Shown in pieces: positions 1 to 64,000 of a stretch of DNA of 64,000 nt (position 1 is its first letter; each line of letters opens with the position of its first letter). Both the position numbers and the translations under genes were made by a program. The stretch is from Escherichia phage DK-13. The notes beneath the pieces were generated by a model that saw only the letters and a list, made by a program, of their open reading frames with translations, searched no databases and was not told the DNA's origin. Location of the stretch: sequence record MT611523.1; one strand, written 5' to 3'.

Positions 1-202
1 TACTATTCAGGATGGTACCATCTTTCATTTCAACTTTTTCAACAAAATAATCACCTTCAATATAACACATATCCAGGACTTTGAAGGAACTACCATGTTG
101 TTCCATCAACTTGACCATGCACGAATTATCATCAGGACTACCAGCGATGAATTGTTTTTTAGCAGCAGGGTCTAATACGTAAAATTTACCAGTTTCCATC
201 AT
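1..202 (-). CDS. hypothetical protein, N-terminal part only (gene runs off window start)
   Basis: ATG at 202 with GAGGAA SD 8 nt upstream; frame open to window edge; translation MMETGKFYVLDPAAKK...; lies downstream of gene 32 where T4 has frd-side small ORFs. Confidence 0.4.
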   Translation of the reverse strand, partial: MMETGKFYVLDPAAKKQFIAGSPDDNSCMVKLMEQHGSSFKVLDMCYIEGDYFVEKVEMKDGTILNS

Positions 203-260
203 TTTAATTTCCTCATTTTTGTTGAGGGAACATATTATCATGTTCCCGTTGGTTTGTATA

Positions 261-488
261 CTAAGCTTGAATCAAGCCCATATAAAATTCAGCGTCTTCC
301 GGGTGCATCCCTTCGCAATATTCATTTTGCATAAAGCGGGTAAGGTCTTCAAGAGGACCTTGAACTTCAATTTGAATACTAAAGAATTGGGTATCTTTAA
401 TGTAAGTCATACACAAAGAAGGATACCGATTACGAATAACTTCGTAAGTGTATTCAAAATCAACGATATCAATATTAACCTTAGCCAT
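261..488 (-). CDS. hypothetical small protein (75 aa)
   Basis: ATG ORF preceded by GAGGAAA SD and an early-type promoter; no recognisable domain. Confidence 0.5.
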
Positions 489-547
489 TTTATTTTCCTC
501 ATGTAGTTGATAGGTCTATAGTATCTCAACCATAGACCGTTGTAAAC
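489..547 (-). promoter_or_regulatory. sigma70-like early promoter with stem-loop and conserved leader
   Basis: minus strand reads GTTTAC (-35), inverted repeat ggtctat/atagacc spanning the -10 region, leader TATCAACTAC, then SD and ATG at 488. Confidence 0.4.
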
Positions 548-549
548 TG

Positions 550-912
550 CTATTTGAAAGCTTTTTGTAGAAGTTCAATGATTTGGTCGACGTTATTAGC
601 ATCTACAACACAATTAATAGAAACCGCCCCCGAAGGTGTTTTTGTATAATTGGAGTATTCACGGAAGCAATAAAACTCTTCTTCACTAAGTTCAAAATAA
701 TCATCACCCATGCCATCATCATTATAGATTGCACCATTAGCACAAATGATTTCGGTTACATAATCATAGCCGTCTAAACTTGATATTGATTTAACTTCAA
801 ACCAACCGCCATTTTCTTGGATGATGTCGACCATACTAGCATTCGATGAACTAATATCAATGAAAGATTTAATACGATGTGGATTGAACTCATATTTTTT
901 GCCGATTTCCAT
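550..912 (-). CDS. hypothetical protein (120 aa)
   Basis: ATG ORF with GAGGAA SD; preceded by promoter/terminator cassette; no recognisable domain. Confidence 0.55.
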   Translation of the reverse strand: MEIGKKYEFNPHRIKSFIDISSSNASMVDIIQENGGWFEVKSISSLDGYDYVTEIICANGAIYNDDGMGDDYFELSEEEFYCFREYSNYTKTPSGAVSINCVVDANNVDQIIELLQKAFK

Positions 913-949
913 TTTTATTTCCTCAGTTGTTATCAGTAGTTGATGGAAT

Positions 950-985
950 CATTATGCCTTAGCTCAAGGGGATTGTACACTACTT
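950..985 (-). promoter_or_regulatory. sigma70-like early promoter
   Basis: minus strand GTGTAC (-35-like), about 18 nt spacer, CATAAT (-10), then leader ATCAACTACTGA and SD GAGGAA before ATG at 912. Confidence 0.4.
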
Positions 986-990
986 TTTTA

Positions 991-1016
991 AAATAAAAAA
1001 GGGACCCGAAGGTCCC
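991..1016 (-). terminator. rho-independent terminator after gene 32
   Basis: minus strand GGGACC-UUCG-GGUCCC hairpin followed by U-run, directly after gp32 stop at 1023. Confidence 0.6.
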
Positions 1017-14010: not shown

Positions 14011-14013
14011 TAA

Positions 14014-14031: not shown

Positions 14032-14041
14032 GGAGGTTTAT

Positions 14042-15528: not shown

Positions 15529-15800
15529 AATCCGGAGGTATACATCATAAGATAACGGTGTATATCTTCGAATCCTTCGTTAAATTGTTCAATGATTTGT
15601 TCAATTTCATCTTCAGATAAACTTTTAAACAACTTGTTAAACGATACATTGTTTAACTCATTCCCATTCTCATTCCGTAATCCTAACTCATTCAAAAACG
15701 CGATAAACACATCACGCTTCATCGTAATATCTTCCCGGTCGGTTTTAATCAAAATTGAAGTTACAGTAACAATTTCAGAAACGATTTCAAATTTAGTCAT
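15525..15800 (-). CDS. asiA: anti-sigma70 protein AsiA
   Basis: 91 aa; ...EIVTVTSILIK..REDI...FIAFLNE.G...FNEGFE...RYL.MYT resembles T4 AsiA; converges on holin t as in T4. Confidence 0.88.
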   Translation of the reverse strand: MTKFEIVSEIVTVTSILIKTDREDITMKRDVFIAFLNELGLRNENGNELNNVSFNKLFKSLSEDEIEQIIEQFNEGFEDIHRYLMMYTSGF

Positions 15801-15858
15801 TTTAATTTACTCAAGTATTCAATAAGACATTCAATTATTCAGTAAGGATATTGTACTA

Positions 15859-16023
15859 TTATTCCTCTGGGTTGTACACATGATTTTTCATCTGTACAAC
15901 ATATTCCTGATACATCTGTTCAACTGGTTCCTGGAACTTAAAATCAGCTCCAAGGAATTCCTCAAAGCAAGACTGTTCGTGTGTACGCTGGCCAGTAATG
16001 GTGTTCTCTAAGTTATGACTCAT
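15859..16023 (-). CDS. small hypothetical ORF (54 aa)
   Basis: ATG ORF below the track size cut-off, found by manual translation (MSHNLENTITGQRTHEQ...); weak support. Confidence 0.3.
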   Translation of the reverse strand: MSHNLENTITGQRTHEQSCFEEFLGADFKFQEPVEQMYQEYVVQMKNHVYNPEE

Positions 16024-17826: not shown

Positions 17827-18042
17827 TTATCCCTTAATAGATTTCATATAATTTGATGCATATGATTGTACCACAGTACGTTTCATATGGGAAGTAGAAA
17901 CAATCACATCAATCGCTTGTTTACGTTCTTCTTTAGAGTTTGCCAGTTTGAACATGTCAAAGTAGTAATAACAAGCTTCTTTATTAGATTTGAATTTAGC
18001 GTTAATGTATTCTTGACCTTCATTCTGTTGTGCAGTAAACAT
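17827..18042 (-). CDS. hypothetical small protein (71 aa)
   Basis: ORF-track start 18054 is TTG; ATG at 18042 has GGAGA SD. Confidence 0.45.
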   Translation of the reverse strand: MFTAQQNEGQEYINAKFKSNKEACYYYFDMFKLANSKEERKQAIDVIVSTSHMKRTVVQSYASNYMKSIKG

Positions 18043-18085
18043 TTTATTCTCCAAAGTTTTTGTGATTCATTGTGTAACTCAGTAT

Positions 18086-18121
18086 GGAATCATTATGCAG
18101 CGGGTCAAGGGGATTGTACAC
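18086..18121 (-). promoter_or_regulatory. sigma70-like early promoter
   Basis: minus strand AAAAAAAGTAGTGTAC (A-tract and -35-like), CATAAT (-10), leader GATTCCATACTGAGTTAC. Confidence 0.4.
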
Positions 18122-18130
18122 TACTTTTTT

Positions 18131-18159
18131 TAAAATAAAAAAGGACCCCGAAGGGTCCT
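18131..18159 (-). terminator. rho-independent terminator downstream of gene 52 region
   Basis: minus strand AGGACCC-UUCG-GGGUCCU hairpin followed by U-run. Confidence 0.6.
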
Positions 18160-18252
18160 AGTCTTTATCTATCTTATTACCAATAAACATACCAACAATC
18201 ACACCTGCGATTGCCGCGAAAATACAAAGCAATGCAAACTCAACTCCAAAAC

Positions 18253-19632
18253 TCATAGAGCCTCCAGGTCATTAAGGTATTCAGTTTTAACATCAGTTGT
18301 CTTCCAGTACTCATGCTCAGCTTTCTTAGCCTTTGCTTCGTCTGCAAGCTTCTTGGCTTCATCAGAGGTCATATGGTAGATGTTCATCGCCACTAACTTC
18401 TCTGCATAATCGCCATATATTTCACTCGCCTGGAGTTCCTCAATCAACTTCTTACGAGGTTTCCCCTGGATAACAACCTTGCCATCAATCACTTCTTTAA
18501 TAAAGAAGACTTTTGCTCGGGCCAGTTTAAATGCTGCTTCAGTTTCTTTAATCTTACTGTCAATTCGCACTTGAACATAAGTCTTACGGACATCAACGAA
18601 ATCGCGAATCAGGTCAAGCGTGTTTGTGTATTCAGCCAGCTTGCCTTTGTGATTAAGCACTGTTAAGTTCTGGGAGAGCTTCTCAATCAGACCAAAGTCT
18701 TTCATGATTTTCTCATGATTTTCTTCTTCAGTACCATCCAACTTGTATTCTTTGCGGAATTTAATCTTAAACCCAAAACCATGCTCGCCACAGTTATCTT
18801 TCCAGGTGATAAAACCTTTCTCTTCCAGCGGGTCCAGGATTTTACTTGTATACTTTTCCAGGTTCCATTGGACCGGGATTTCAGTAATTTCCATTTGGGT
18901 CCTGGAAGTCATTTTGTATGTGCCATGAAGCTCATACTTACCAGGCTCTTCCAGCTCAACCACTTTACCGCGGAATTCTGGATATTTTACTTTCGGAGCA
19001 ACCGGCTCCCGACCTTCCACGATAGCTTTAACAGCTTCCTTGACGTCCTGGAACGAATGAGGAAGAATATCAGTAGCGAAGCCAACAGCAATCCCAGAAG
19101 TGGCGTTAAGTAATACAGTAGGAATAACAGGAAGATAAAAAGCAGGAGGCTTATGTTCTTCATCAGGATGGACCGGAGCATATTCTGTATCCTTAAACAA
19201 GTTATAAAAGTTCTTTGAAACCCTTGCGAATACATAACGAGCTGATGATGCTTCTGGAACCATTCTGGAACCAAAGTTACCTTGCCCATCAAACATGGGG
19301 TATTCATTTTTATATGTTGCGACCAAACCAGAAGTTGCTTCTTCCGCTGATGCTTCGCCATGGTGATAACCATAATCAGCTACGCCACCTGCAATGGAGG
19401 CAACCTTATGGAATTTATTCTTATCGCCACGAGCCAGGTCTAATGCTCTCGCCATAACAAATCTGTGAACTGGTTTAAAACCATCAATCATGTTTGGGAT
19501 GGCACGACCTTCCACAGTGTAGATAGCATATGACAATGCTTCCACATCAATAATGTCTTTTAGACTGCGTGGGTTAAGGGACCCCATGGAATCACTGAAC
19601 TGTTTGGACATCATACTTAAAACGTCAGACAT
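18253..19632 (-). CDS. 52: DNA topoisomerase II medium subunit gp52
   Basis: 459 aa; GyrA/ParC-like N-terminal region (RAIPNMIDGFKPV.RF...ARVSKNFYN) resembling T4 gp52; ATG with GGTGA SD. Confidence 0.93.
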   Translation of the reverse strand: MSDVLSMMSKQFSDSMGSLNPRSLKDIIDVEALSYAIYTVEGRAIPNMIDGFKPVHRFVMARALDLARGDKNKFHKVASIAGGVADYGYHHGEASAEEATSGLVATYKNEYPMFDGQGNFGSRMVPEASSARYVFARVSKNFYNLFKDTEYAPVHPDEEHKPPAFYLPVIPTVLLNATSGIAVGFATDILPHSFQDVKEAVKAIVEGREPVAPKVKYPEFRGKVVELEEPGKYELHGTYKMTSRTQMEITEIPVQWNLEKYTSKILDPLEEKGFITWKDNCGEHGFGFKIKFRKEYKLDGTEEENHEKIMKDFGLIEKLSQNLTVLNHKGKLAEYTNTLDLIRDFVDVRKTYVQVRIDSKIKETEAAFKLARAKVFFIKEVIDGKVVIQGKPRKKLIEELQASEIYGDYAEKLVAMNIYHMTSDEAKKLADEAKAKKAEHEYWKTTDVKTEYLNDLEAL

Positions 19633-19640
19633 ATATCACC

Positions 19641-19781
19641 TTACCAGATTAACGAATGTACTGCCATTATAGCATCAGAAATAAAAAGCACAACCTGTAC
19701 TAATGCAAACATAACTCCATAATACAACGCTACCAATAAGGTAGCAAGGGCTAACGAGTAGCCCAAGATTTTCTTAATCAT
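19641..19781 (-). CDS. small hydrophobic peptide (46 aa)
   Basis: manual translation MIKKILGYSLALATLLVALYYGVMFALVQVVLFISDAIMAVHSLIW; ATG overlaps upstream stop (ATGA); sits where T4 has ac/stp-type small genes before gene 52. Confidence 0.35.
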   Translation of the reverse strand: MIKKILGYSLALATLLVALYYGVMFALVQVVLFISDAIMAVHSLIW

Positions 19782-19942
19782 TTATTAATAGCCGATTCAA
19801 GAAATTTAACTAAGGCATCCAGTACAAACCATGTGCAAATAAATCCTGCAAAAAGAGTACTTGGGACCCATACACCTGTAGCAAAAAGAGTCACAGCAAC
19901 GATAACAGCTACGAGCCAGATAAAAGTAAAAACTGATTGCAT
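19778..19942 (-). CDS. small membrane protein (54 aa)
   Basis: track ORF 19778..19963; start moved to ATG 19942 with GAGGAA SD; hydrophobic; hairpin ggcgtc-tttg-gacgcc just upstream. Confidence 0.45.
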   Translation of the reverse strand: MQSVFTFIWLVAVIVAVTLFATGVWVPSTLFAGFICTWFVLDALVKFLESAINK

Positions 19943-20031
19943 GTTTTCCTCACAGGCGTCCAAAGACGCCAGTTAATTTCAGATTATGACGATGCCATTG
20001 CATCACATGTTCGTTATGGAAATTACTCATA

Positions 20032-20481
20032 TTAATAGCTCTGTAAAATGAATTTAAAGTTATCAGCAAGCATGCGATTCATTTCTGAAAGGGTCTGGCA
20101 ATCAGAACTATGTGAGCGAGTGAACGCCATCGCAATTTGACCTTTACCATAACCAGTTGTCAGAGGTTTCATTTTAGAAACTGGGACAAACAGGACTTCA
20201 TAGATAACCCCATTGTTCGCCATTGTGCGAGACAGTTGCGAACGCTGTTTGCGGATGTGACTTAATACAGTGTCAAACCCTTGTTGTGAACGTTGGTTAC
20301 CAACATAAAAACGTGCGGCAACAATACGTGATTCGCCTTCACCTTTGACCACGAAATAAAAACCTGGTTGGGTGACAGCTTCTTTAGTTGGACGCCCTGC
20401 AACATAATTGCCATTATGGATGTGAGCAACAGTGGTAGCGCCAGCATTCAGTACGTCACGACGGGTCATGTAAGTAGTCAT
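20032..20481 (-). CDS. ndd: nucleoid disruption protein Ndd
   Basis: 149 aa; ...[28 protein letters not shown]...Y.V...[39 protein letters not shown] resembles T4 Ndd. Confidence 0.88.
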
Positions 20482-20520
20482 ATTAATTTCCTCAGTAAGT
20501 TAAAGTTTTGTGCTCCAGTG

Positions 20521-20556
20521 GGGGTCATTATACTCTGACCCCAAGAGTTTGTACAC
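20521..20556 (-). promoter_or_regulatory. sigma70-like early promoter with stem-loop (PeSL-like)
   Basis: minus strand GTGTACAAACTCTTGGGGTCAGAGTATAATGACCCC: -35-like, TATAAT, inverted repeat GGGGTCA/TGACCCC flanking the -10. Confidence 0.45.
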
Positions 20557-20900
20557 TATTTTTGAAGTTGTTCTAAAATAAATCCGCTGGTGTAAAGGCT
20601 TGCATTATACAGGCGGTCAAGAGACAACGAATCCAATCCATAAGCTTCGCGAATTGCATTGATAACACTCTCATAACTTGTATAATAAACATCACGATAA
20701 TCGCGGTCCATAGTCATGCGGAACTTAATAAATTTGTAGAAACCAGTTTCAGGGTCCTGATAGAATGCAAATTCTGCAGACATCAAATTTTTAAGGTTAA
20801 CAGCTTTTGTACCACCTGAATAACTTAAATCAAATGCTTCTGATATGCTAATCTGTTTAAAGAACATAATGTTGCGATTACCAAAAAATACTTTAGACAT
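20556..20900 (-). CDS. hypothetical protein (114 aa)
   Basis: ATG ORF with SD; flanked by promoter cassettes. Confidence 0.5.
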   Translation of the reverse strand: MSKVFFGNRNIMFFKQISISEAFDLSYSGGTKAVNLKNLMSAEFAFYQDPETGFYKFIKFRMTMDRDYRDVYYTSYESVINAIREAYGLDSLSLDRLYNASLYTSGFILEQLQK

Positions 20901-20932
20901 AATATTTTCCTCAATTAAATTTTATTATCCAC

Positions 20933-20968
20933 GGGAACATTATACTCTGCTCCCAAGAGTTTGTACAC
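20933..20968 (-). promoter_or_regulatory. sigma70-like early promoter with stem-loop (PeSL-like)
   Basis: near-identical copy of the 20521-20556 cassette (GTGTACAAACTCTTGGGAGCAGAGTATAATG). Confidence 0.45.
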
Positions 20969-21213
20969 TATTCTACATCTACTGCGCCATCCCACAAGTC
21001 AACTTCTTCTGATGATTCCATCAGTTCATCAACTGTGAAGCACTCAGTATTATTTTCAATTGCAAAACGCTTCTGATAAAAAGGATAATCCAAACAGTTT
21101 TCAGTGCGCACGGGGCGTTCACTGTTATCCATTAAAGGCGAAATGCGAATCAGTTGTTGACCATTACCCAGGACAAATTTTTCACCAACTGCAATGTCTT
21201 TAAAAAGTTTCAT
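20968..21213 (-). CDS. hypothetical protein (81 aa)
   Basis: ATG ORF; no recognisable domain. Confidence 0.45.
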   Translation of the reverse strand: MKLFKDIAVGEKFVLGNGQQLIRISPLMDNSERPVRTENCLDYPFYQKRFAIENNTECFTVDELMESSEEVDLWDGAVDVE

Positions 21214-21416
21214 TGCTTAGCTCCATTCCAAATTACATCAACAACAGACTTCAAACCATTATCCTGGATTTGTGTGAATACTTCAGCAGCAATCCAGAGC
21301 TGGAAACCAATCATTGCAATGGCACCAATGAAAATCAGGATAATCATTGCCACAATAAACTTGAACATAAAGTCAAAGCGACGATTGGATTTCTGAAAGT
21401 GTGAATTGTAATTCAT
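21210..21416 (-). CDS. small membrane protein (68 aa)
   Basis: track ORF 21210..21464; start moved to ATG 21416 with GAGGATAA SD; one predicted TM segment. Confidence 0.45.
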   Translation of the reverse strand: MNYNSHFQKSNRRFDFMFKFIVAMIILIFIGAIAMIGFQLWIAAEVFTQIQDNGLKSVVDVIWNGAKQ

Positions 21417-21426
21417 AATATTATCC

Positions 21427-21543
21427 TCAAAAGAAATAGTTAAAGTAAACACGCACATGGTCAATCATAAAAACAATTGGGAAAATGCTCAGGACAACAA
21501 ACAGTACAAACATGTTCCAAATGGCTTTAAGTAACTTTTTCAT
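21427..21543 (-). CDS. small hydrophobic peptide (38 aa)
   Basis: manual translation MKKLLKAIWNMFVLFVVLSIFPIVFMIDHVRVYFNYFF; preceded by the conserved leader and SD. Confidence 0.3.
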   Translation of the reverse strand: MKKLLKAIWNMFVLFVVLSIFPIVFMIDHVRVYFNYFF

Positions 21544-21688
21544 AATCATCTCCAGTAGTTGATAGGTTCATTATACTACAACCACTGGAGATGTATACTC
21601 TTTTATGCAAGTTTCATTAATAATAAACTAAAACAAACGCAAATTACTGGGATACACAATATCCAGATAAGACACCAGGTTTTGCTGC

Positions 21689-21955
21689 TCAAAATATCAC
21701 CTCTTTGATTTCAATCAGACCACGGTGCAATGCAGTGCGAAGGTCATAAAGAATATCTATGCCATCAACATTATCCAGTTTTCCATCAATAAGCTTTTTT
21801 AAATCACGCTTTGATGCAACTAGCGGGCGAAGAAATTTACATTCAGAAAGAGACAACTCTGTAGTAACATCATCACCATCACCTGACGCATCATACATGG
21901 CGGCAACAACCATACCTGTAACTTTGTGCTTGGCGTAATATAATTTGATATCCAT
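21689..21955 (-). CDS. hypothetical protein (88 aa)
   Basis: ATG ORF preceded by promoter cassette. Confidence 0.5.
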   Translation of the reverse strand: MDIKLYYAKHKVTGMVVAAMYDASGDGDDVTTELSLSECKFLRPLVASKRDLKKLIDGKLDNVDGIDILYDLRTALHRGLIEIKEVIF

Positions 21956-21984
21956 TTTGTTTCTCCAGTTTGGTAACTCAGTAT

Positions 21985-22020
21985 GGAATCATTATACATA
22001 GACTCCATACTGATGTACAC
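21985..22020 (-). promoter_or_regulatory. sigma70-like early promoter
   Basis: minus strand GTGTACAT (-35-like), 17 nt spacer, TATAAT, leader GATTCCATACTGAGTTAC. Confidence 0.45.
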
Positions 22021-22030
22021 TACTTTTTAA

Positions 22031-22306
22031 TTAATTTTGCATTTGTTCTTTAACTTCTTTATATGCGCCAACTGCATTCACGACCCCAGTAAAATCTGCA
22101 GTCCCACGATAGAGATAGAAAGCAATTTCAGTCAGGTGGTAGACTTCAAATTCTGAAAGATAAACGATAACGTCATAATATGCAACTTGACCCTGGACTT
22201 CGTTGAATACCACATCAAAAATTTCATGGGTTGGAAAATTGATGTTGTTGTTTTTGAGTGCTTGGATAAGAATTTGTTTGATGTTGTGAGTAGTAACGTG
22301 TTCCAT
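22031..22306 (-). CDS. hypothetical protein (91 aa)
   Basis: track ORF 22031..22396; start moved to ATG 22306 with GAGGA SD; SD lies inside an 11-bp perfect inverted repeat. Confidence 0.45.
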   Translation of the reverse strand: MEHVTTHNIKQILIQALKNNNINFPTHEIFDVVFNEVQGQVAYYDVIVYLSEFEVYHLTEIAFYLYRGTADFTGVVNAVGAYKEVKEQMQN

Positions 22307-22353
22307 GATAATGTCCTCATTTGTTGGTATGAGGACATTATTACACAGTTGGT

Positions 22354-22947
22354 TCAGCTTGTAAACCGGTGATAGGGAAATTTTTCTTCTGAACAAGAAC
22401 GGAGGTACCAGCCATCCCCTTGTGACTTCTGCACAAGACCAGACTCAGGAACGAAAGCACCAGGCCCAGCAAGGAATTTTGGTTTAAATCTATAACCTTT
22501 GAGAGTCTCTTTTACATCGAGCATAATCATAAGGTCAGCAAGTTTGTGTTGCATAAAGGGACCAAGATTAACCCCGTAACCATGTGGATAATCGCCCTGG
22601 TGACCAGTATGCACGGATATCCATTTGGAACCAGACTGGTGGGTCTTGACTTCGATTCTTACCCCTTCCTTCGAAACTACATCAAATGCAAAGGAATAAG
22701 GATTATCGTAATCTTCATCACCGCCACATAAAAAACCGGAGGTCCATTTGGCAATAGCTTGTTCAGCCATTGTGGCCACCATACATCTTTGCATGACTTG
22801 CTCACGGTCCTGACCTGGGTCTTTACGCAATGAATACCGGGCAGTGTCTACAATCTTTTGCAGGGATTCGGGGGTTAAGTCTTCCTTTGTATAAAGGAAG
22901 GAGGGCATCTTTTTCAGATGCTCCCATGTTTTACTCTTCTGAATCAT
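22354..22947 (-). CDS. denB: DenB-like endonuclease (start uncertain)
   Basis: track ORF 22354..23031; start moved to ATG 22947 with AAGGA SD just after upstream stop; first ORF downstream of rIIB region as denB in T4; possible D-x(n)-E-V-K nuclease motif (AFDVVSKEGVRIEVK). Confidence 0.4.
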   Translation of the reverse strand: MIQKSKTWEHLKKMPSFLYTKEDLTPESLQKIVDTARYSLRKDPGQDREQVMQRCMVATMAEQAIAKWTSGFLCGGDEDYDNPYSFAFDVVSKEGVRIEVKTHQSGSKWISVHTGHQGDYPHGYGVNLGPFMQHKLADLMIMLDVKETLKGYRFKPKFLAGPGAFVPESGLVQKSQGDGWYLRSCSEEKFPYHRFTS

Positions 22948-23473: not shown

Positions 23474-23506
23474 AAAGCCTCATTAGGGGCCGAAGCCCCG
23501 ATTAAT

Positions 23507-26928: not shown

Positions 26929-27193
26929 TTCCAATCTCCTGCAATATTTTTCTCATACTACGCATGGTAGCTTTATGTTCTTGGTCATGGTATATCAATG
27001 CAAGGAGTGCTTCAATTCGCTCCTCAGGGACCTTCTGGCCAGCCTTAATGCTCATGGCTGTTGCTCTTACAGCCAACAAGTAACTTCGCTTCCTGTCGCT
27101 ATCTGGGAGCTCCTGTACCTTCCTCAGGCCTGCTTCCATAATACAACGAGCAACATTCTGCAGATTAACTAAACTTCCATCAGACATAATCAT
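26894..27193 (-). CDS. hypothetical protein (99 aa)
   Basis: ATG ORF between gene 39 region and rIIA. Confidence 0.45.
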   Translation of the reverse strand: MIMSDGSLVNLQNVARCIMEAGLRKVQELPDSDRKRSYLLAVRATAMSIKAGQKVPEERIEALLALIYHDQEHKATMRSMRKILQEIGNDELQSEYGTV

Positions 27194-27241
27194 ATTTTCA
27201 CCTCAAAGACATCTTAACGCAATTTTTATGGCTTGTACATA

Positions 27242-27265
27242 ATAAAAAAGGACCCGAAGGTCCTT
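27242..27265 (-). terminator. rho-independent terminator
   Basis: minus strand AAGGACC-UUCG-GGUCCUU followed by UUUUAUU. Confidence 0.55.
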
Positions 27266-27269
27266 TTGG

Positions 27270-27464: not shown

Positions 27465-29297
27465 TTATAGCGTCGCATTCATCCAGTCTTTACGCTGCTG
27501 GGAATCTTTACCGAATAGCATTTCGAACAGTTCTTTCCAGTTGTCGGGCAATTGAACAACTTCGAATACCGGTTCGAGCAATACACGTTTATACTCGGCA
27601 TCTTCCAGAGAACCAAGCCCCTTGATATATCGGATGGTGTGCTTCGGAAGTTTATCCTTAGCTTCTTCATAGTCAGGGAGAGAATAGAACCATTCTTGTT
27701 TATCTTTGAGCTGTGCAATAATAACAGGAGTTTTCACAAAGCGAATTCGTCCTTCATGGAACAACTCTGGCCAGTTACTGAAAAACGCCAATAATGATGG
27801 ATAGATACTACCGACACCATCCACATCCGCATCTGTCATGATAGCAATGTTTCGGTAATTCATATTCTCGGCCGGTTGTCCAATCGTTAATCCAGTAATT
27901 GCACACACATCAAAGGCTTCAGCGTTCTTCATAACTTCAACAGCTTTCAGACCCCATGTGTTTTTAAACTTACCACGTAATGGATAAGCACCTTGCAATT
28001 CACGGTCACGAACCTTGATAAATGGACCGGTTGCAGAATCACCTTCAGTCAGGAACAGAGTTGTTTCCAACTTATCATTGCCCCATTCGTTGGCTTTGAT
28101 ATGCTTTTGTACCTTGGCCTTTGAAGCTTTCTTATTTGCTTTAGTCTCTGCTGCTTTCTCTGCAGCCAATTTACGGGCTAATGCAGCTTCAACAATCGGC
28201 ATAATCAGCGGTTCATTTTTCAGAATAGCTTGCGCGATTTTCTTGGCATCAATCTTAATGTGATTTCGAATTTCGCCAGCCGGAGAAGTCAATCGCTCCT
28301 TGGTCTGGGAATCAAATCGCATGTTGCTCATATCGCGGATGAACATAAGCATGGTGAGACATTCTTTAACTCGTGCCTTGGTCACCTCGATGCCTTTATA
28401 TTTGCGCTTAATCGCAGGCTGAAGGTATTCACAGATATCATCCATAACACATTCAACGTGGTGTCCGCCATTCTTTGTATGAATATTGTTGACATAAGTC
28501 AGCTGACGGAAACCGTCCGGGCTGGTCGTAAAGGCCATCGATACTGTATCAGTTTCCTGGATAACAACTTCAGTTCCGAATTGCTTGGAGAACTTCTTGA
28601 AATTACCATCAACCTTTTTACCATTAAAGGTGAACTGAATATCCGGATAAACAACCGCGAGAGTCTGTAAACGGTCTAATGTAATATCCAGATAAATCTG
28701 GGACAGACTATTTTCTTCAAAGTGACTAAAATCTGGAACAAATATAACAGTTGTACCTTTGCCCTTAGATTTCTTGGTGGACCAACCTTTGTTTTCCATA
28801 CCGTTGGAGCAGTTAACAGTAATTTCATTTGTCCCATCAGCGGTAATCCCGGTGAACAATACAGAGAAAATATTGGTCAGAGAAGACCCGACACCATTCA
28901 TCCCGCCAGTTTTACGTTCAGCATCATCACCGAAGTTGCCACCGGCTTTTGGAATAGTCCATGCTGCAACAGGGCCAGGGATTTGTTCACCGTTTTGGTC
29001 TGTAACCATTGCTTGTGGAATACCACGGCCATTATCAGAAACCGAAATCTGATTATCTTTAATTTGGACATCAATTTTATTGGCAAATTTAAAACTGGTG
29101 CGAATTGCTTCATCAACAGAGTTATCGATAATTTCATCAATCAGTTTTACAATACCAGGAACATAGCTTACGGACTTATATTCACCAAACAAGAATCGCT
29201 CATGCGCTTCATTTGAACTGGAACCAATATACATCCCGGAACGTTTTTTGATATGCTCGACGTCCGAGAGTACTTTAATTTCATTATTAATCATCAT
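27465..29297 (-). CDS. 39: DNA topoisomerase II large subunit gp39, single long ORF covering T4 gp39 plus gp60 regions
   Basis: 610 aa; GyrB-like ATPase N-terminus and TOPRIM-like region (LTEGDSA, DADVDG); T4 has 516-aa gp39 plus 160-aa gp60 with a bypass, here one uninterrupted ORF. Confidence 0.93.
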   Translation of the reverse strand: MMINNEIKVLSDVEHIKKRSGMYIGSSSNEAHERFLFGEYKSVSYVPGIVKLIDEIIDNSVDEAIRTSFKFANKIDVQIKDNQISVSDNGRGIPQAMVTDQNGEQIPGPVAAWTIPKAGGNFGDDAERKTGGMNGVGSSLTNIFSVLFTGITADGTNEITVNCSNGMENKGWSTKKSKGKGTTVIFVPDFSHFEENSLSQIYLDITLDRLQTLAVVYPDIQFTFNGKKVDGNFKKFSKQFGTEVVIQETDTVSMAFTTSPDGFRQLTYVNNIHTKNGGHHVECVMDDICEYLQPAIKRKYKGIEVTKARVKECLTMLMFIRDMSNMRFDSQTKERLTSPAGEIRNHIKIDAKKIAQAILKNEPLIMPIVEAALARKLAAEKAAETKANKKASKAKVQKHIKANEWGNDKLETTLFLTEGDSATGPFIKVRDRELQGAYPLRGKFKNTWGLKAVEVMKNAEAFDVCAITGLTIGQPAENMNYRNIAIMTDADVDGVGSIYPSLLAFFSNWPELFHEGRIRFVKTPVIIAQLKDKQEWFYSLPDYEEAKDKLPKHTIRYIKGLGSLEDAEYKRVLLEPVFEVVQLPDNWKELFEMLFGKDSQQRKDWMNATL

Positions 29298-29339
29298 CTT
29301 TCCTCTTGTGTATGGAGGTATTATAAGTCACATATTTTA

Positions 29340-29363
29340 AAGCAAAAAGGCCCGAAGGCCTTT
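29340..29363 (-). terminator. rho-independent terminator upstream of gene 39
   Basis: minus strand AAAGGCC-UUCG-GGCCUUU then U-rich tract. Confidence 0.5.
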
Positions 29364-29761: not shown

Positions 29762-29768
29762 AATATCC

Positions 29769-30850: not shown

Positions 30851-31342
30851 TTAGGCACGATGAATATCAGCATACTCAACGATAAAGCTTTCAGGAACCA
30901 CCTTAAAGGTTCCAAGGAACACGATGTTATAGAGCTTAACGCCTTTTTCAACCCACTGGTCTGTGATGTAACCAGACATGCTAGTGGTTTCATAAGTACC
31001 AAAAGGTTCGTCAACATATTCAAACGGTTTAGGTGAAACAAAAAAGACACCTTTGCCCAATTTCCATTTAAAATCAACCCCAACATGAGACTGGTCAATG
31101 GTTTCAACTTCTTCGGTCACAGGAGCGATGTACCCAGTAAATTCGGTTGATTCCAGGAATTTAGGATGTACATAAGCCAATTGAGTTTCAGTCTGGCCAT
31201 TTTTAGGAATAATACGCACTTTAACTTCTTTAATTCCACCTACTAAATTAGTGCGAAGACCCACAACCTCAACAAAACGACCAGCAGCTTTAGAACGAGA
31301 TTCTTTAGAAACACGTGCAATATCACCAACTTCAACTTTCAT
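30851..31342 (-). CDS. hypothetical protein (163 aa), paralog of the next gene in its C-terminal module
   Basis: C-terminal GYITDQWVEKGVKLYNIVFLGTFKVVPESFIVEYADI matches GWVTDQWIEDGVELLNVVHAGEFTVVPRSMAVEIFN of ORF 31419..32171; size and position similar to T4 motB region. Confidence 0.55.
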   Translation of the reverse strand: MKVEVGDIARVSKESRSKAAGRFVEVVGLRTNLVGGIKEVKVRIIPKNGQTETQLAYVHPKFLESTEFTGYIAPVTEEVETIDQSHVGVDFKWKLGKGVFFVSPKPFEYVDEPFGTYETTSMSGYITDQWVEKGVKLYNIVFLGTFKVVPESFIVEYADIHRA

Positions 31343-31378
31343 AATTTTCTCTCTTGGTTAATAAGTTTATTCTCCAGT

Positions 31379-31414
31379 GGGGCCATTATACTCCGGCCCC
31401 AAGAGTTTGTACAC
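31379..31414 (-). promoter_or_regulatory. sigma70-like early promoter with stem-loop (PeSL-like)
   Basis: minus strand GTGTACAAACTCTTGGGGCCGGAGTATAATGGCCCC; inverted repeat GGGGCC/GGCCCC flanks the -10. Confidence 0.45.
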
Positions 31415-32171: not shown

Positions 32172-32428
32172 TATGCAACCTTATTGAACATCGCCAGTTG
32201 ATTAGGTTGTACAACCATAATTTCACGACGACCTTTTGCATTTGACACGTTCAGGTAGATGCCTTTGTTCATATCAGTTTCTTTATCATATACCGCAATT
32301 TTATTGACAGTAAAGATTTTACCACGAATATTTGTAAATGCACATTCAAACGCTTTAGTCAGACCTGCTTCAGCAGCTTGAAGAGCAGACATTTCATATT
32401 GTTGGCCAATTTCAAAAGAAGTAATCAT
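32171..32428 (-). CDS. hypothetical protein (85 aa)
   Basis: track ORF 32171..32476 begins inside the promoter/leader motif; start moved to ATG 32428 after leader TCAACTACTGATGAGGATAA. Confidence 0.45.
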   Translation of the reverse strand: MITSFEIGQQYEMSALQAAEAGLTKAFECAFTNIRGKIFTVNKIAVYDKETDMNKGIYLNVSNAKGRREIMVVQPNQLAMFNKVA

Positions 32429-32495
32429 TTTGTTATCCTCATCAGTAGTTGATGAGATGATTATGTCTCTTTCCATTGGCCTTGTACACTACTTT

Positions 32496-35029: not shown

Positions 35030-35776
35030 TTAACCTCTAATCAGTTTAAAAATTGACGCGTTCAAAGGTAGACCACGTTTCAGTTTTAATTTACCAATAA
35101 AACCAATCTTCTCAAAACGCTCAAGACCTTGAATGATTTTATCATAGCAATCAAAAAGCGTTTCAGCATCAGTTAATTTCTTGGTAACTTTCCAGTCATT
35201 ACCTTTGAGCAGGACATTCAATTTAGTAAGCTCATGTCCTTCCGCAACACGGGAACCATCAATGCGAGCCTTCAGAGCAACCATTTTTAATTGGTTTTCT
35301 TTGGACTGCTCTGATTTACTCATTTGAGCATAATGCTTAACGCGATTATCACGTTTGTGCTGGATGTTCTTGATATGAGTATATGACTTTTTAATCTGTT
35401 CCCATTTCTCTGAAGTCAGATTTAACTTTTCAATCTTCTTGGCAGAGGGGCGAGCAATTTTTACAGCAACATCATCGCGACGTTGTTTAAGCTCATCCAG
35501 GGACCAATCAGAACGCATGGTATTGTATTTCTTTTTAACAGGAATAACATTACCCTTGATATAACCAATATCATTGTTAAAACGCTCTAATGATAACTTC
35601 TCACCTTCAATAGAGTTATTAAATGCTTCACCAGAATAGGCACAAACTTTTTGGTCAAGAATGTTAACCAGGTAATTGAAATCCAGGTTAAAGTCTTTAC
35701 CGCGGCGTTTAGCGGAAGCTTGAGTGTGTTCCAAACGACGTTTAACTTTCAGCGTTTTGGTTTTTGATAAAGTCAT
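35030..35776 (-). CDS. hypothetical basic protein (248 aa), at the T4 srd position
   Basis: ATG ORF between dda and modA-like gene; Srd assignment is by position and size only. Confidence 0.5.
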   Translation of the reverse strand: MTLSKTKTLKVKRRLEHTQASAKRRGKDFNLDFNYLVNILDQKVCAYSGEAFNNSIEGEKLSLERFNNDIGYIKGNVIPVKKKYNTMRSDWSLDELKQRRDDVAVKIARPSAKKIEKLNLTSEKWEQIKKSYTHIKNIQHKRDNRVKHYAQMSKSEQSKENQLKMVALKARIDGSRVAEGHELTKLNVLLKGNDWKVTKKLTDAETLFDCYDKIIQGLERFEKIGFIGKLKLKRGLPLNASIFKLIRG

Positions 35777-35932
35777 GATATTTTTCTCATCTTACGGACG
35801 ATTGAAAACTCAGTATGGATTCATTATATACTATTCATCTTTTATGTACACTACTTTTTCACCTTTAACGCTTTTATTTTTACTGTGTATAATGGTTCTA
35901 AGGTCTTTGGCCTTTTGTTAACCCAGAATACT

Positions 35933-36547
35933 TCAGTAAGAAAGAACGGAAAGATTCCATAATTTATAGTCTTCCCATCTATAAATGCTCTCAATAGAGT
36001 CCACGCGTAGCGTAGTTCCCGCAGGGAACATCATCTCATCTTCATCATTTACTAATTGCAAGTTTGAAGAACGAGTTATTTCAGGATATAGTCCGTTGAA
36101 CTCTTCAGGAGGTGCCGCACAAATCATTTTAAAAATCGCTTCCTGATAATCAAATGCGAATGGTGCATCATTAATACAGAAAATATTTTTGGTTCCATAG
36201 AAGCTAAAGGAAGCAAAGTTACGCGCAACACTGAAATCTTTGGAGAAACTCATTACACGGTCAAACTCAATCGTAGCACCAACACATCCTACGGTTTCAA
36301 GATATGCCAAAGTTTTCTTAGAAATCCCGCGATATAACTTACCAGGCACAGCAGAAGTCAAATTCTTACGAATAATTTTGTTCAAAGTTTCCTGGATAGT
36401 GTCTGGCTTATTTTCCATACACTGCCAGAGTGTACTCTGTTCCAACTCAGAGTAAATTTCATCAATTTCAATCTGGGTATTTTCACGAAAATATTCACAT
36501 TTAACTGCATTGATGTACTCTGCTAATTGGTGACTTGCGTACAGCAT
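35933..36547 (-). CDS. modA: ADP-ribosyltransferase ModA-like
   Basis: track ORF begins inside leader motif; ATG at 36547; R-S-E-class ART-like motifs (GKLYRGIS; MSFSKDFSVA); tandem with paralog; position as T4 modA. Confidence 0.55.
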   Translation of the reverse strand: MLYASHQLAEYINAVKCEYFRENTQIEIDEIYSELEQSTLWQCMENKPDTIQETLNKIIRKNLTSAVPGKLYRGISKKTLAYLETVGCVGATIEFDRVMSFSKDFSVARNFASFSFYGTKNIFCINDAPFAFDYQEAIFKMICAAPPEEFNGLYPEITRSSNLQLVNDEDEMMFPAGTTLRVDSIESIYRWEDYKLWNLSVLSY

Positions 36548-36591
36548 TTTATTATCCTCATCAGTAGTTGATAGGAACATCTTAACGTGTC

Positions 36592-37152
36592 TTATTGCTC
36601 TTGTACACAGTCAAGAACATAATAATCACCAACAAATCCAGCATCAACTATCACGAATTTCTGGTCAACTGGAACAAACCATTCAAGCTCAGAATCAATC
36701 ATGTCCATGTATTCTTCACGTCTTAACGTTGCCGCCTGTTCGGAACCAGAAGCTGTATTGAAGAATTCCAGTGGAACATCAAGCGCGAGCTTACGCATTA
36801 CATCATGGTAACAAAAAGCTTTTGTCTGATTCAATCTGACGATAGTCCTTGTCACATATTCCATTGCAGCAAAATCCCTGGCAATACCATAGTCTTCTGT
36901 AAAGGAGGTTATCCTTCCAAATTCAAAAGGTTGCATTGATTCTTTTGCTTCATCTAACAAATCAATCTCTTGCTGGGTCACCCCACGATACAAGACTGTA
37001 TCAGGTATAGACAACCTTGACTTGATGATTGAGTTAACGTTTGAATGCAAGGTCTTATCAACCTTTGATGTGCGGCATTCAAATAATGAAGCTATCTCCA
37101 TTTCACTAAATTTTAACTGGTTGGGTTCGGTATCAGATTTGATGATGTTCAT
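36592..37152 (-). CDS. modB: ADP-ribosyltransferase ModB-like
   Basis: 186 aa; ART-like motifs (VLYRGVT; RITSFTEDYGIA; DSELEWF); paralog of adjacent ORF; position as T4 modB. Confidence 0.55.
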   Translation of the reverse strand: MNIIKSDTEPNQLKFSEMEIASLFECRTSKVDKTLHSNVNSIIKSRLSIPDTVLYRGVTQQEIDLLDEAKESMQPFEFGRITSFTEDYGIARDFAAMEYVTRTIVRLNQTKAFCYHDVMRKLALDVPLEFFNTASGSEQAATLRREEYMDMIDSELEWFVPVDQKFVIVDAGFVGDYYVLDCVQEQ

Positions 37153-37208
37153 AATGGCCTCTCTGTTGTAAGAAAGACCATTATGTCATTAGGAGGGGAG
37201 TAAGTAAA

Positions 37209-37442
37209 CTACTTAAATACTCCAAGTGGGACGCCAAAGACTGCAATGTCTACGGCCATGCCAATCGGAGATTGATATGATGAGTAAGAACTTTTCGATT
37301 CTGTCGGGCGTTTGACTTTAATTGTCTCGGATTCAGTCTTAAGCCTTTGTAAGCGATTAATTTTTTGTTGCTCAATTTCCTTATGATCGTGTTTACGGTC
37401 GATATCCAGCGTCGATGTGGGGATATTTGTTAACCAGTTCAT
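37209..37442 (-). CDS. hypothetical protein (77 aa)
   Basis: track ORF 37209..37463; ATG at 37442 overlaps upstream stop (ATGA). Confidence 0.4.
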   Translation of the reverse strand: MNWLTNIPTSTLDIDRKHDHKEIEQQKINRLQRLKTESETIKVKRPTESKSSYSSYQSPIGMAVDIAVFGVPLGVFK

Positions 37443-38785: not shown

Positions 38786-38979
38786 AGGAAACCACGTTTA
38801 AATTCAACTTTACCATCATCACAACGGATTTCAATATTGAATTCTAAAGAATCATCATCGTGCATCATAAACGAGTGCACGACAACCTCGTCAAACACAC
38901 CCAGACCATACTTAAAATGTACATCATGGGCAATAACTTCGTCTAAAGTTTTGTTCGGTTTAATCCAACGGTTTAACAT
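38782..38979 (-). CDS. hypothetical protein (65 aa)
   Basis: ATG ORF preceded by TATAAT and leader TATCTCAACTACAGAGGAG. Confidence 0.45.
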   Translation of the reverse strand: MLNRWIKPNKTLDEVIAHDVHFKYGLGVFDEVVVHSFMMHDDDSLEFNIEIRCDDGKVEFKRGFL

Positions 38980-39024
38980 AGTATTCTCCTCTGTAGTTGA
39001 GATAATTATACCATCTCTATTAAA

Positions 39025-39050
39025 AGCAAAAAGGGAACCCGAAGGTTCCC
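39025..39050 (-). terminator. rho-independent terminator after soc
   Basis: minus strand GGGAACC-UUCG-GGUUCCC followed by UUUUUGCUUUU. Confidence 0.6.
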
Positions 39051-39055
39051 TATAA

Positions 39056-44535: not shown

Positions 44536-44829
44536 TTATTCACCTGTAACCCATTGAACAATTTTGCTATTGTCAAATGAAGCATCGCAATACAGAACAT
44601 AGTTATACTGCATAACGTCACCAGAAGTCAATTTGTCAGATACTTCTTTAACCATATCAGGGCGGTCACGTTTAGTTATGTTCATAATATCAGCATAAAT
44701 CTGATGTTCAACATCAGTCTGGTCGGCAGTCATAGACCACTCACAAAGGTCTTTATCAAGTCCAGCAGTAACTGGAGCTGTACCACATGATGCTACGGTA
44801 AGAATTGCCGCGATTAATAACTTTTTCAT
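44536..44829 (-). CDS. sp: periplasmic superinfection-exclusion protein Sp (spackle)-like
   Basis: 97 aa with N-terminal signal peptide MKKLLIAAILTVASCGTAP; same length and position (between 61 and 41) as T4 sp. Confidence 0.55.
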   Translation of the reverse strand: MKKLLIAAILTVASCGTAPVTAGLDKDLCEWSMTADQTDVEHQIYADIMNITKRDRPDMVKEVSDKLTSGDVMQYNYVLYCDASFDNSKIVQWVTGE

Positions 44830-44886
44830 TTCAATCTCCTCAGTAGTTGATAGGGATAATATACAGCATTATCCCTTTGTTGTACA

Positions 44887-45126
44887 CTATTTTAATGCAT
44901 CTTCCAGATAAATTTTGCGGAATTTGCGTTTTGTCTGACGAATCTGACGCTTGGTAGGTTTCACAGGAAATTCGAAGAACTCTACGTATTCTTGTTCATA
45001 ATCATTGTGGCCGACTGAAAGAACTAGTTCCCAGCTGCTTACGGTGCGTTGGATAAACATATTATGCTTACCAAAAGATTTATTCCAAAAAGAACTAGGG
45101 GTAGGTTTCATTAATGCGATATTCAT
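44887..45126 (-). CDS. hypothetical protein (79 aa)
   Basis: ATG ORF; basic C-terminal tail. Confidence 0.4.
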   Translation of the reverse strand: MNIALMKPTPSSFWNKSFGKHNMFIQRTVSSWELVLSVGHNDYEQEYVEFFEFPVKPTKRQIRQTKRKFRKIYLEDALK

Positions 45127-45330: not shown

Positions 45331-45648
45331 TTAGATTTCCTCGCAGAAGGCCCAGGCAGCGTGATAAACTGTTGCGCCTTTAGTATCATTTAAACAAACC
45401 ACGTCAACCGGTGCAATCACACGATAAAGACGGGGTTCTCCTCCATATGAGCGAGCTGCTCTTCCTGCATAGATACGTGCCAAACCAATATCTTCAGTAA
45501 AAAACACACGCCCTAAATTTTTCTTACGCCCAACTTCTGACAGAACACCAGTTGCATCAGGAGGGCAAAGCATATTTTGGATTCCAGCATTAGAGCTTGA
45601 CCCATGATAATAAACTTTGTATTCTGCCTTGCAATCAATGGTTTTCAT
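45331..45648 (-). CDS. hypothetical protein (105 aa) with PARP-like NAD-binding signature
   Basis: YYHGSSSNAGIQNMLCPPDATG...GRVFFTEDIGLARIYA resembles the H-G-S and Y-F-A-D blocks of H-Y-E-class ADP-ribosyltransferases; ATG with leader/SD. Confidence 0.5.
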   Translation of the reverse strand: MKTIDCKAEYKVYYHGSSSNAGIQNMLCPPDATGVLSEVGRKKNLGRVFFTEDIGLARIYAGRAARSYGGEPRLYRVIAPVDVVCLNDTKGATVYHAAWAFCEEI

Positions 45649-45685
45649 TTTATTCTCCAGTAGTTGATAGGGTCATTATAACATA

Positions 45686-45710
45686 AGAAAAAGGGGCTGT
45701 AAGCCCCTTT
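45686..45710 (-). terminator. rho-independent terminator after gene 41
   Basis: minus strand AGGGGC-UUACA-GCCCCU followed by UUUUUCUU. Confidence 0.55.
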
Positions 45711-49537: not shown

Positions 49538-49780
49538 TCATTTTGATTCCTTGATGATAATTACTTGTGCGTTTGATTTACGTTCAGCAACGAGTGCCCA
49601 GATAAATGCAATAAACCATCCGACCATTGTCCAACCTAACAGAAGGTTAACAAAGAAGATTCCGCAATTACTTTTGGTACCACGCAGCAGCGCGATAATC
49701 CACGGCAGAAAATATGCCAGTGCAGCCAGGAAGAAAGAACCAGCCCCAAGAACAACAGTACCCGCAATTAATGTTTCCAT
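49538..49780 (-). CDS. imm: immunity protein Imm-like (superinfection exclusion membrane protein)
   Basis: 80 aa with two hydrophobic segments; immediately downstream of gene 43 as T4 imm. Confidence 0.55.
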   Translation of the reverse strand: METLIAGTVVLGAGSFFLAALAYFLPWIIALLRGTKSNCGIFFVNLLLGWTMVGWFIAFIWALVAERKSNAQVIIIKESK

Positions 49781-49817
49781 TTTAATATCCTTAAGTTATT
49801 CATCAGTTGATGAGGTA

Positions 49818-49847
49818 ATCATACGGCAATCCATTGCCGTTGTAAAC
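49818..49847 (-). promoter_or_regulatory. sigma70-like early promoter with stem-loop
   Basis: minus strand GTTTAC (-35), inverted repeat ACGGCAAT/ATTGCCGT in the spacer, TATGAT (-10), leader TCATCAACTGATGA. Confidence 0.45.
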
Positions 49848-63947: not shown

Positions 63948-64000
63948 TATGTTTTCCTCATCAGTAGTTGATGGGATAATGATACATCATTCAAAGGGGC

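Follow-up and report, generated by a model that had tools for sequence, protein, structure and literature searches.

Probable immediate-early promoters packaged with stem-loops in the early region of Escherichia phage DK-13

The early region of Escherichia phage DK-13 carries repeated copies of one composite cassette, in which a promoter, a hairpin or terminator and a standard leader are packed between small genes. We analysed these cassettes in a stretch of 64,000 nucleotides (nt) of record MT611523.1, hereafter the window. They are very probably the immediate-early promoters of this phage, built on the promoter-early stem-loop (PeSL) plan known from other T4-type genomes. The stem that often brackets the -10 box has probably been selected as an RNA structure of the sense strand. 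As for gene shuffling, the cassettes appear in our sample as module boundaries and occasional crossover sites, not as its main driver.

The source phage is T4-like and belongs to the VR7/SP18 group (Gaprivervirus), with ~95% identity to its nearest relatives; region 18055-22030 is 93-97% identical to the Gaprivervirus phages P896, VR20, UPEC01, VR7 and SP18. Its early genes lie on the minus strand in T4 order: gene 52, stp, ndd, small ndd.x-like open reading frames (ORFs), denB, rIIB, rIIA, 39, motB, dexA, dda, srd, modA/B, soc, 56, 61, 41, uvsX and 43. The small ORFs among the cassettes had family matches only to phage families of unknown or non-specific function, and the same holds for the PHROG and DUF matches of the ORFs of 38-114 amino acids (aa) among which five cassettes lie at 20.5-22.4 kb. 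For comparison we used nine relatives (L002-L010, loci of ~30 kb each) and, in addition, a shorter VR7 locus. No promoters were annotated in the relatives' records that we examined, and in the searched literature we found no transcript data for this phage group and no description of VR7/SP18/JS98 early promoters, except for a brief mention of 'PeSL-like sequences' close to g43 of JS98.

From 5' to 3', a cassette consists of the stop codon of the upstream ORF, an A-rich tract (e.g., 'aaaaagta'), the -35 box GT(G/T)TACA, a spacer of 17 nt (rarely 16), a TATAAT-like -10 box, G-N-N-C-C, the start region, the leader, a Shine-Dalgarno (SD) sequence and ATG. The boxes recur in 19-21 copies, bearing out the A-tract, the GTGTAC(A) or GTTTAC -35, the TATAAT-like -10 and the short conserved leader that had been proposed for this element. 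Each cassette is named here by the coordinate of the first base of its -35 heptamer. The upstream stop codon overlaps or abuts the -35 box (TAG-TGTACA) at 20556, 20968, 37209 and 44887, often as a TAG whose G is also the first G of the -35. The conserved start region occurs as (C)TATCAACTACTG, CCATACTGAG or CCCCACTGGAG, and the leaders, 11-43 nt long, end in a GGAG, GAGG or AGGA SD followed by ATG. What is conserved in the leader is its primary sequence, and not the structure of the leader stem (ATCA...TGAT). Between copies, stretches of 35-70 nt are near-identical.

Several leaders also fit the cleavage consensus of RegB, GGAGRAYARAA (PMC3014915), e.g., GGAGAATAAAA at cassettes 18121 and 45704. 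The matching leaders lie at 18041-18051, 45649-45659 and ~31360-31375, all on the minus strand. In the motB (31414) and ndd (20556) cassettes, the GGAG is not the functional SD; the sequence there is reminiscent of a degenerate 'ACTGGAGAATAAAATG' end of a leader, such as would result from fusion of an entire cassette 5' of a second leader.

The repeats cannot reasonably be attributed to chance, given the excess of the motif, the number of leader copies and the z-scores of the hairpins described below. GTGTACA-N17-TATAAT with up to two mismatches was found 16 times, always on the minus (early-gene) strand, against 2.15 ± 1.46 times in shuffled sequences, none of which (0/100) reached 16. The leader ATCAACTACTG has seven exact copies in the window, each immediately following a -10 box on the minus strand. 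A generic sigma70 consensus scan was not discriminating (71 sites, versus 57.6 ± 8 in shuffles); the phage-specific pattern alone discriminates.

An nhmmer profile hidden Markov model built on 19 copies recovered 20-21 cassettes in the window, 13-16 in each of the nine relatives and 7 in the VR7 locus, without exception on the minus strand; in the plus-strand tail-fibre block at 4.8-15.5 kb the scan of the window gave none. The original prediction spoke of at least a dozen copies and listed 15 sites: all 15 are present on the minus strand at the coordinates given, one of them (63948-64000) cut by the window edge, and six further copies (261, 15879, 22366, 27240, 37209 and 45704) had been overlooked. 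No Rfam family matched in the window. A scan of IMG/VR for the GTGTACAAACTCTTGGG... subtype returned only six stretches on three contigs, with no sign of spread beyond the genus.

When the spacer/-10/+22 segments of 19 cassettes were folded and compared with dinucleotide shuffles, nine showed a hairpin with z ≤ -2.9 (range -2.9 to -6.8). In eight of these nine the -10 box sits in the loop, in keeping with the inverted repeat that was said to bracket it frequently; hairpins over the -10 occur at 261, 547, 20556, 20968, 21598, 22020, 31414 and 44887. Six of them (261, 20556, 20968, 21598, 22020 and 31414) share a register, with 4 nt between the 5' arm and the -10 and none between the -10 and the 3' arm. 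Elsewhere the hairpin lies between the boxes (49847), over the -35 with a U-run (45704), downstream in the leader (22366, 32489) or, in its UUCG form, upstream (980, 18121, 27240). These positions correspond to the five classes known for PeSL stem-loops, as reported for RB49/phi1 (PMC2839356).

The evidence that the stem is maintained as RNA comes from an alignment of 20 distinct paralogous and orthologous sequences of the common-register class. Its 6-bp core stem is paired in 99.2% of cases, as compared to 86.8% with shuffled partners and 37-74% in slid registers, and the covariation score was reached by 0/500 shuffles. Three of the six core pairs vary on both sides, e.g., G-C to G.U to A-U and C-G to U-A among orthologues of the motB cassette. 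The non-Watson-Crick cells of the alignment comprise nine G.U, one U.U and no A.C. Since pairing covaries and G.U is tolerated without A.C, selection would have acted on the sense-strand RNA. In line with this, the sense fold is more stable than the antisense fold for all nine window hairpins and for 29 of 36 unique hairpin sequences.

These observations may be accommodated as follows. Host sigma70 RNA polymerase would bind the A-rich, UP-like tract, the -35 GT(G/T)TACA and the -10 TATAAT, and transcription would start ~7 nt past the -10, near the conserved ATCAACTACTG. The resulting leader of 15-40 nt would end in a GGAG/GAGG SD, in several cases matching the RegB consensus, and lead into the ATG. 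All early genes being co-directional, each cassette would also be read through from upstream promoters. As the cassette's own transcript starts 3' of the 5' arm, and hence lacks it, only read-through RNA could form the stem; this confinement probably holds, following as it does from the geometry, with a start site that is itself inferred. The stem would then terminate or attenuate transcripts arriving from upstream, or provide them with a stable 3' end, insulating neighbouring ORF modules from one another by canonical UUCG plus U-run terminators at ~5 junctions and by U-less hairpins elsewhere.

The published role of the stem is that of a terminator or attenuator of upstream transcripts, from one RB49 stem in a lacZ assay (PMC2839356). 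In our case, an attenuator and/or 3'-end stabiliser insulating the modules would be the most likely role; we favour it because the stems lack a U-run and because, in T4, the 3' termini of early RNAs are taken for stable ends and not for sites of termination (PMC6024815). A more general view, which we consider rather doubtful, is that the fixed-register -10 hairpin is a selected RNA element confined to upstream-derived transcripts, a general insulator that ends, trims or silences foreign read-through RNA where the module's own transcript begins. If this were true, each promoter plus ORF unit would be expressed autonomously, and so could move between genomes without being mis-expressed, which would tie cassette structure to mobility more directly than does the published 'terminator plus homology patch' view.

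Several results weigh against the explanation favoured here. About a third of the cassettes have no hairpin, and 15879, 35851 and 36608 are among those without a significant one; the hairpins bracketing the -10 have no U-run, hence are not canonical intrinsic terminators; and across all 19 cassettes the sense-versus-antisense energy difference is not significant. Moreover, the covariation counts are phylogenetically correlated, and the G.U-versus-A.C asymmetry depends on ~5 independent events (p ~0.03). Start sites, termination and RNA ends are, for this phage, all inferences. The inverted repeats might instead act as DNA, either as a palindromic operator through which a dimeric phage or host regulator shuts off the early promoters or as a cruciform/hairpin target of a recombination nuclease. 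In favour of this, the repeat has its centre at the -10, a position at which bound protein would obstruct RNA polymerase; a loose GGGRNC...GNYCCC pattern is common to the arms; and Arbiol et al. speculated that GGGG...CCCC is a possible protein target (PMC2839356). Within this one genome, however, the arms are diverse (GGGGTCA, GGGAGC, GTATGGAGTC, GGTCTAT, AGGGATAAT, ACGGCAAT) and their pairing is kept by compensatory changes, while an excess of G.T over A.C on the sense strand is not predicted by duplex DNA or by a symmetric operator. Stems of 6-10 bp with loops of 8-10 nt, such as these, also make poor cruciforms. On these grounds, we deem a DNA-level function very improbable.

An RNA-level alternative is that the hairpins work as a general switch, the read-through RNA hiding the SD/AUG (or the RegB GGAG), with each ORF expressed only from its own promoter. 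This does appear to be the case in three cassettes, where hairpins with a 5' arm in or upstream of the promoter core and a 3' arm over the SD/AUG are found on the minus strand at 37150-37209, 21541-21600 and 22304-22345. The predicted SD accessibility there drops from 0.57 in the own transcript to 0.26 in the read-through RNA (21598), from 0.55 to 0.09 (22366) and from 0.64 to 0.13 (37209). An outer helix CTCT/GGAG also pairs the GGAG in 20556 and 31414, and T4 offers a precedent in e, soc, 49 and I-TevI (reviewed in PMC3014915). There, as in 21598, 22366 and 37209, the 5' arm lies upstream of the start of an internal promoter, so that only longer transcripts hide the SD/AUG; the T4 promoter, however, is late or middle and expression is delayed, whereas here an early promoter lies within an early operon, and in most cassettes here, unlike in T4, the SD is not involved. 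Indeed, reliable scores were obtained for 18 cassettes (18121 had a mispicked ATG), and in the other 15 of these accessibility was unaltered; the true SD of 20556, 20968, 22020 and 31414 is located 12-30 nt past the stem. Applying to just 3 of 18, occlusion of the SD was rejected as a general property, and the general switch seems unlikely. Hiding the SD/AUG would be a second role of the same design, limited to cassettes 21598, 22366 and 37209. In orthologues of 37209, the pairing is retained through switches between G.U and Watson-Crick pairs.

The contribution of the cassettes to gene shuffling was assessed by aligning the window with the nine relatives over 16-47 kb, which yielded ~20 distinct indel or replacement events and 36 breakpoint clusters. 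Of the 36 clusters, 11 fall inside cassette footprints, which occupy 5.1% of the region (p = 1.2e-6 versus a uniform distribution). The cleanest event is at 45710-45719, where the window has one cassette after gene 41 and L004 has cassette-ORF-cassette with an identical upstream flank. The crossover falls within the GGGG(-35)CCCC hairpin, and a cassette flanks the inserted ORF on either side; in L005 the same place holds two ORFs and three cassettes. In the 44887, 45704 and 37209 groups, the upstream flank changes precisely at the -35, different genes abutting there in different phages; at 44887, three different upstream flanks meet the same nucleotide of the -35 in relatives. Furthermore, the gene-52-side cassette of L005 and L007 has the spacer 'cttgtcttagga' of a paralogous cassette 26 kb away (L005:2121 vs L005:28444; L007:1946 vs L007:28241), the two spacers being different in the other relatives, which suggests ectopic gene conversion between dispersed cassettes. 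Because the 35-70-nt stretches are near-identical between copies, the phage recombination system might occasionally cross over within them, adding or removing a cassette plus ORF unit, as one shuffling route among several.

It is nevertheless conceivable, though not the reading we favour, that the cassettes are simply strong conserved promoters, whose coincidence with indels reflects selection and the modularity of gene junctions rather than recombination within cassettes; only events leaving promoters, SDs and ORFs intact would survive. A good part of the census speaks for this and against a leading role of the cassettes. Per junction, 8 of 17 cassette junctions had been used, versus 14 of 44 others, a difference that is not significant (p = 0.21). 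None of the remaining 25 clusters falls in a cassette; most coincide with tight SD-ATG junctions, and the others are in gene interiors (srd, motB) and around the homing-endonuclease gene or the second insertion (see below). Most events occurred at cassette-free SD-ATG junctions (16876, 17210, 20025, 21420, 22950, 23270, 29767, 43545, 43740, 45126), none at the cassettes before the conserved genes motB, dexA, modA and modB, and a two-cassette signature was seen in only one of the ~20. Two events associated with cassettes, 20908-20978 and 21953-21962, have their joints not in the promoter core but at a short SD-spacer-ATG repeat of 10-16 nt, TGAGGAAAATATTATG / GGAGAA(A/T)(C)AAAATG. A purely selective account is countered by the 45710-45719 crossover within the hairpin/-35 of two cassettes, by the three unrelated flanks that abut one nucleotide at 44887, by the spacer-conversion signal and by the experimental finding of PeSL mini-circles in RB49/phi1 (PMC2839356). 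The proposal that the cassettes serve as recombination substrates shuffling the small ORFs, with breakpoints inside them in related genomes, therefore stands for one clean case and for the flank switches, and as an account of shuffling it is partial.

Other rearrangements were also noted. Two insertions on the minus strand are absent or replaced in all nine relatives: 39333-40392, between soc and gene 56, containing a 277-aa homing endonuclease (phrog_655; 39559-40392) and a 77-aa ORF, and 41232-42111, containing a 134-aa ORF without a family match. In phage CJ20 (L002:5900-6170), a divergent tandem paralogue (MKFKFYYVKHKVTG...) of ORF 21689-21955 (MDIKLYYAKHKVTG...) lies between cassette 22020 and that ORF. 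At 35180-35485 and 21714-21915 (minus strand), ~200-300 nt within srd and within an 88-aa ORF are swapped in some relatives for equally long, divergent sequence; these are intragenic mosaics, unconnected with any cassette. A 131-aa ORF at 29375-29767 (minus strand) is missing from L007, L009 and L010. Its end, CGATTCAAATAA, is almost a copy of that of the gene before it (CGATTCGAATGA), giving a 12-14-nt direct repeat at an indel junction beside a terminator.

The UUCG hairpins are a separate component, less frequent than the 'often' of the original prediction implied: a UUCG terminator accompanies only ~5 cassettes (1011, 18153, 27259, 29357, 39044). In total, C(UUCG)G hairpins occupy nine minus-strand and two plus-strand intergenic sites, with or without a U-run. 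Tuerk and colleagues reportedly described, in 1988, C(UUCG)G tetraloop hairpins in T4 intercistronic regions; such extra-stable intergenic hairpins are found here too, with no notable difference. Three on the minus strand (23476-23507, 43140-43170, 54790-54820) have neither U-run nor promoter and lie between a stop codon and the next SD; the first site (23473-23515) is also an indel junction in L004. In the plus-strand late tail-fibre block, a C(UUCG)G terminator with U-run at 9950-10000 is directly followed by a late promoter, TATAAATA, so that the terminator-then-promoter design is also present for late genes; a second UUCG hairpin on this strand (14010-14040) lies just 5' of an SD.

One site predicted as an early cassette, 38980-39050, turned out to lack a -35 and to have a MotA box instead, which makes it a middle promoter. 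MotA boxes (TGCTT) ~12 nt 5' of the -10, in place of the -35, are found at 39030, 29346, 60272, 40961 and 4823; the MotA box does not apply to the other 20 cassettes. The first three promoters (TGCTT-N12-TAnnnT) are each preceded by a terminator hairpin and are 'PmSL'-like, the third spanning 60225-60290 on the minus strand, and those at 40961 and 4823 have no hairpin. The coordinates of all features are collected in the table.

Table. Early cassettes, middle promoters and reference genes in the window (MFE, minimum free energy)
Feature	Coordinates	Strand	Boxes, hairpin and leader	Other observations
Cassette	200..261	-	hairpin GGGAACAT/ATGTTCCC around -10; z -3.1
Cassette	486..547	-	GTTTACA; hairpin GGTCTAT/ATAGACC overlapping -10; z -3.2; leader ATCAACTAC
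Cassette	910..1016	-	UUCG terminator, T-run and early promoter	best profile match, 40.8 bits; near-identity to 18040-18159 across ~70 nt
Cassette	15798..15879	-	early promoter
Cassette 3' of gene 52	18040..18159	-	AGGACCCTTCGGGGTCCT and T-run terminator 18142-18159, then A-tract; -35 GTGTACA 18115-18121; -10 CATAAT 18092-18097; leader with GGAGAATAAAA	ATG 18042
Gene 52	18253-19632	-
ndd	20032-20481	-
Cassette 5' of ndd	20479..20556	-	GTGTACA; hairpin GGGGTCA/TGACCCC with -10 TATAAT in loop; MFE -15.5, z -3.1	upstream ORF stop TAG overlaps -35; ATG 20481
Cassette	20898..20968	-	hairpin GGGAGC/GTTCCC (one G.U) around -10; z -3.1; sense -12.8 vs antisense -6.2	48-aa ORF in its place in L003 and L010
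Cassette	21541..21600	-	17-bp hairpin ATCTCCAGTGGTTGTAG.../...CTATCAACTACTGGAGAT enclosing -10; MFE -22.1, z -6.8	hairpin pairs with SD of 38-aa ORF
Cassette	21953..22020	-	13-bp hairpin, core arms GTATGGAGTC/GATTCCATAC, around -10; z -5.2	extra ORF inserted at SD/ATG in seven relatives (51 aa in six, longer divergent paralogue in L002)
Cassette	22304..22366	-	GTTTACA ... AATAAT; leader hairpin GTCCTCAT/ATGAGGAC over SD
Cassette	27191..27267	-	UUCG terminator and T-run, then weak early-type promoter ATGTACA ... TAAGAT
Middle promoter	29295..29362	-	UUCG terminator and MotA box	adjoining 392-nt ORF missing from three relatives
Cassette 5' of motB	31340..31414	-	hairpin GGGGCC/GGCCCC around -10; z -4.2	compensatory changes among orthologues
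Cassette, region 5' of dexA	32426..32489	-	leader stem CTCATCA/TGATGAG
Cassette 3' of modA homologue, 5' of srd homologue	35774..35851	-	16-nt spacer; hairpin degenerate in window	ATG 35776; hairpin intact (TGGAT/ATCCA) in L006 and L007
Cassette between modB and modA homologues	36545..36608	-	no significant hairpin	ATG 36547
Cassette	37150..37209	-	-10 (CATAAT...) pairs over 14 bp with SD and AUG of next ORF	upstream ORF deleted in L002, junction at -35
Middle promoter	38975..39055	-	UUCG terminator and MotA box, TGCTTT-N12-TATAAT; leader CTCAACTAC
Cassette	44827..44887	-	hairpin AGGGATAAT/ATTATCCCT over -10; z -2.9
Cassette	45646..45710	-	-35 GCTTACA in loop of terminator-like hairpin GGGGCT/AGCCCC, with T-run	crossover site of cassette-ORF insertions in five relatives
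Cassette	49778..49847	-	hairpin between boxes; z -3.7
Cassette, truncated	63948..64000	-	-10 region, leader ATCAACTACTGATGAGG and ATG only inside window

Our analysis maps promoters and terminators in the early region of the VR7/SP18 group (Gaprivervirus), in whose records neither is annotated. It also contributes evidence, from covariation, for selection of the PeSL stem as an RNA of the sense strand, and it quantifies shuffling over nine relatives: the cassettes could account for about a third of the breakpoints, and tight SD-ATG junctions and homing endonucleases for most of the others. The published shuffling claim is thereby tempered; the picture of how T4-type genomes are organised is unchanged, and a T4 specialist is unlikely to be surprised.

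The PeSL kind of element has already been described, although in the searched literature the cassettes of the VR7/SP18 group have not. All the sequence features by which the PeSL papers define it (tract, boxes, stem-loop, SD plus ATG, clustering) were found here, in agreement with the resemblance noted in the original prediction. The PeSLs of RB49/phi1 have the same parts in the same order, namely an AT-rich tract, -35, 17-nt spacer, -10, stem-loop, SD and ATG (PMC2839356). Their stem-loop, as here, is commonest between the boxes or over the -10, often as GGGG...CCCC with G-T pairs, and likewise they cluster among small ORFs in hyperplastic early regions. They are associated with indels between relatives, with a crossover inside the stem-loop; in our sample, which includes one such crossover, the indel association holds against a uniform distribution and is not significant against other gene junctions. 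The RB49 -35, however, is a near-perfect TTGACA, whereas the cassettes described here have the T4-type GT(G/T)TACA and, unlike RB49, a leader, ATCAACTACTG, that is common to T4. For RB49, lacZ assays showed activity of the PeSL promoters and of one stem-loop, and mini-circles of PeSLs were observed (PMC2839356). Of the breakpoints in our sample, only ~30% fall within cassettes.

PeSLs and PmSLs have also been reported for T4/PST and nt-1/KVP40 (PMC4122927). The T4/PST consensus, TTTACW-N17-TAYWAT, is close to the one found here, and the worked example of PeSL-mediated exchange in that study, ndd.x-denB, is the same locus as ours. The PmSL type (terminator plus MotA-box middle promoter) is present here too, at 29346, 39030 and 60272. 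The T4/PST stem-loops, on the other hand, lie just 5' of the promoter and are AT-rich (AGNA...TCNT), whereas the commonest class here is G/C-rich and encloses the -10, as in RB49.

The early promoters of T4 itself are UP/-35/TGn/-10 promoters with extra consensus regions (PMC2988021), and their hexamers, spacing, A-rich tract and start-site region are the same as here. Since they share the sequence of the start region, the 'conserved leader' would be part of an extended T4-type consensus (PMC2988021). They prefer GTTTACA, whereas GTGTACA is preferred here, most copies being without a TGn extended -10. The stretches of the T4 records NC_000866 and AF158101 that we examined carry no promoter features, so orthology to mapped T4 promoters was established by sequence: the T4 promoters 163673, 166807 and 167086, in the orthologous motA and ndd-denB regions, read GTTTACA-N17-TACTAT-N4-6-CTATCAACTA. 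Irrespective of the precise role of the stem, the cassettes of DK-13, as far as their sequence goes, unite a T4-type -35 and leader with an RB49-type, G/C-rich stem over the -10.

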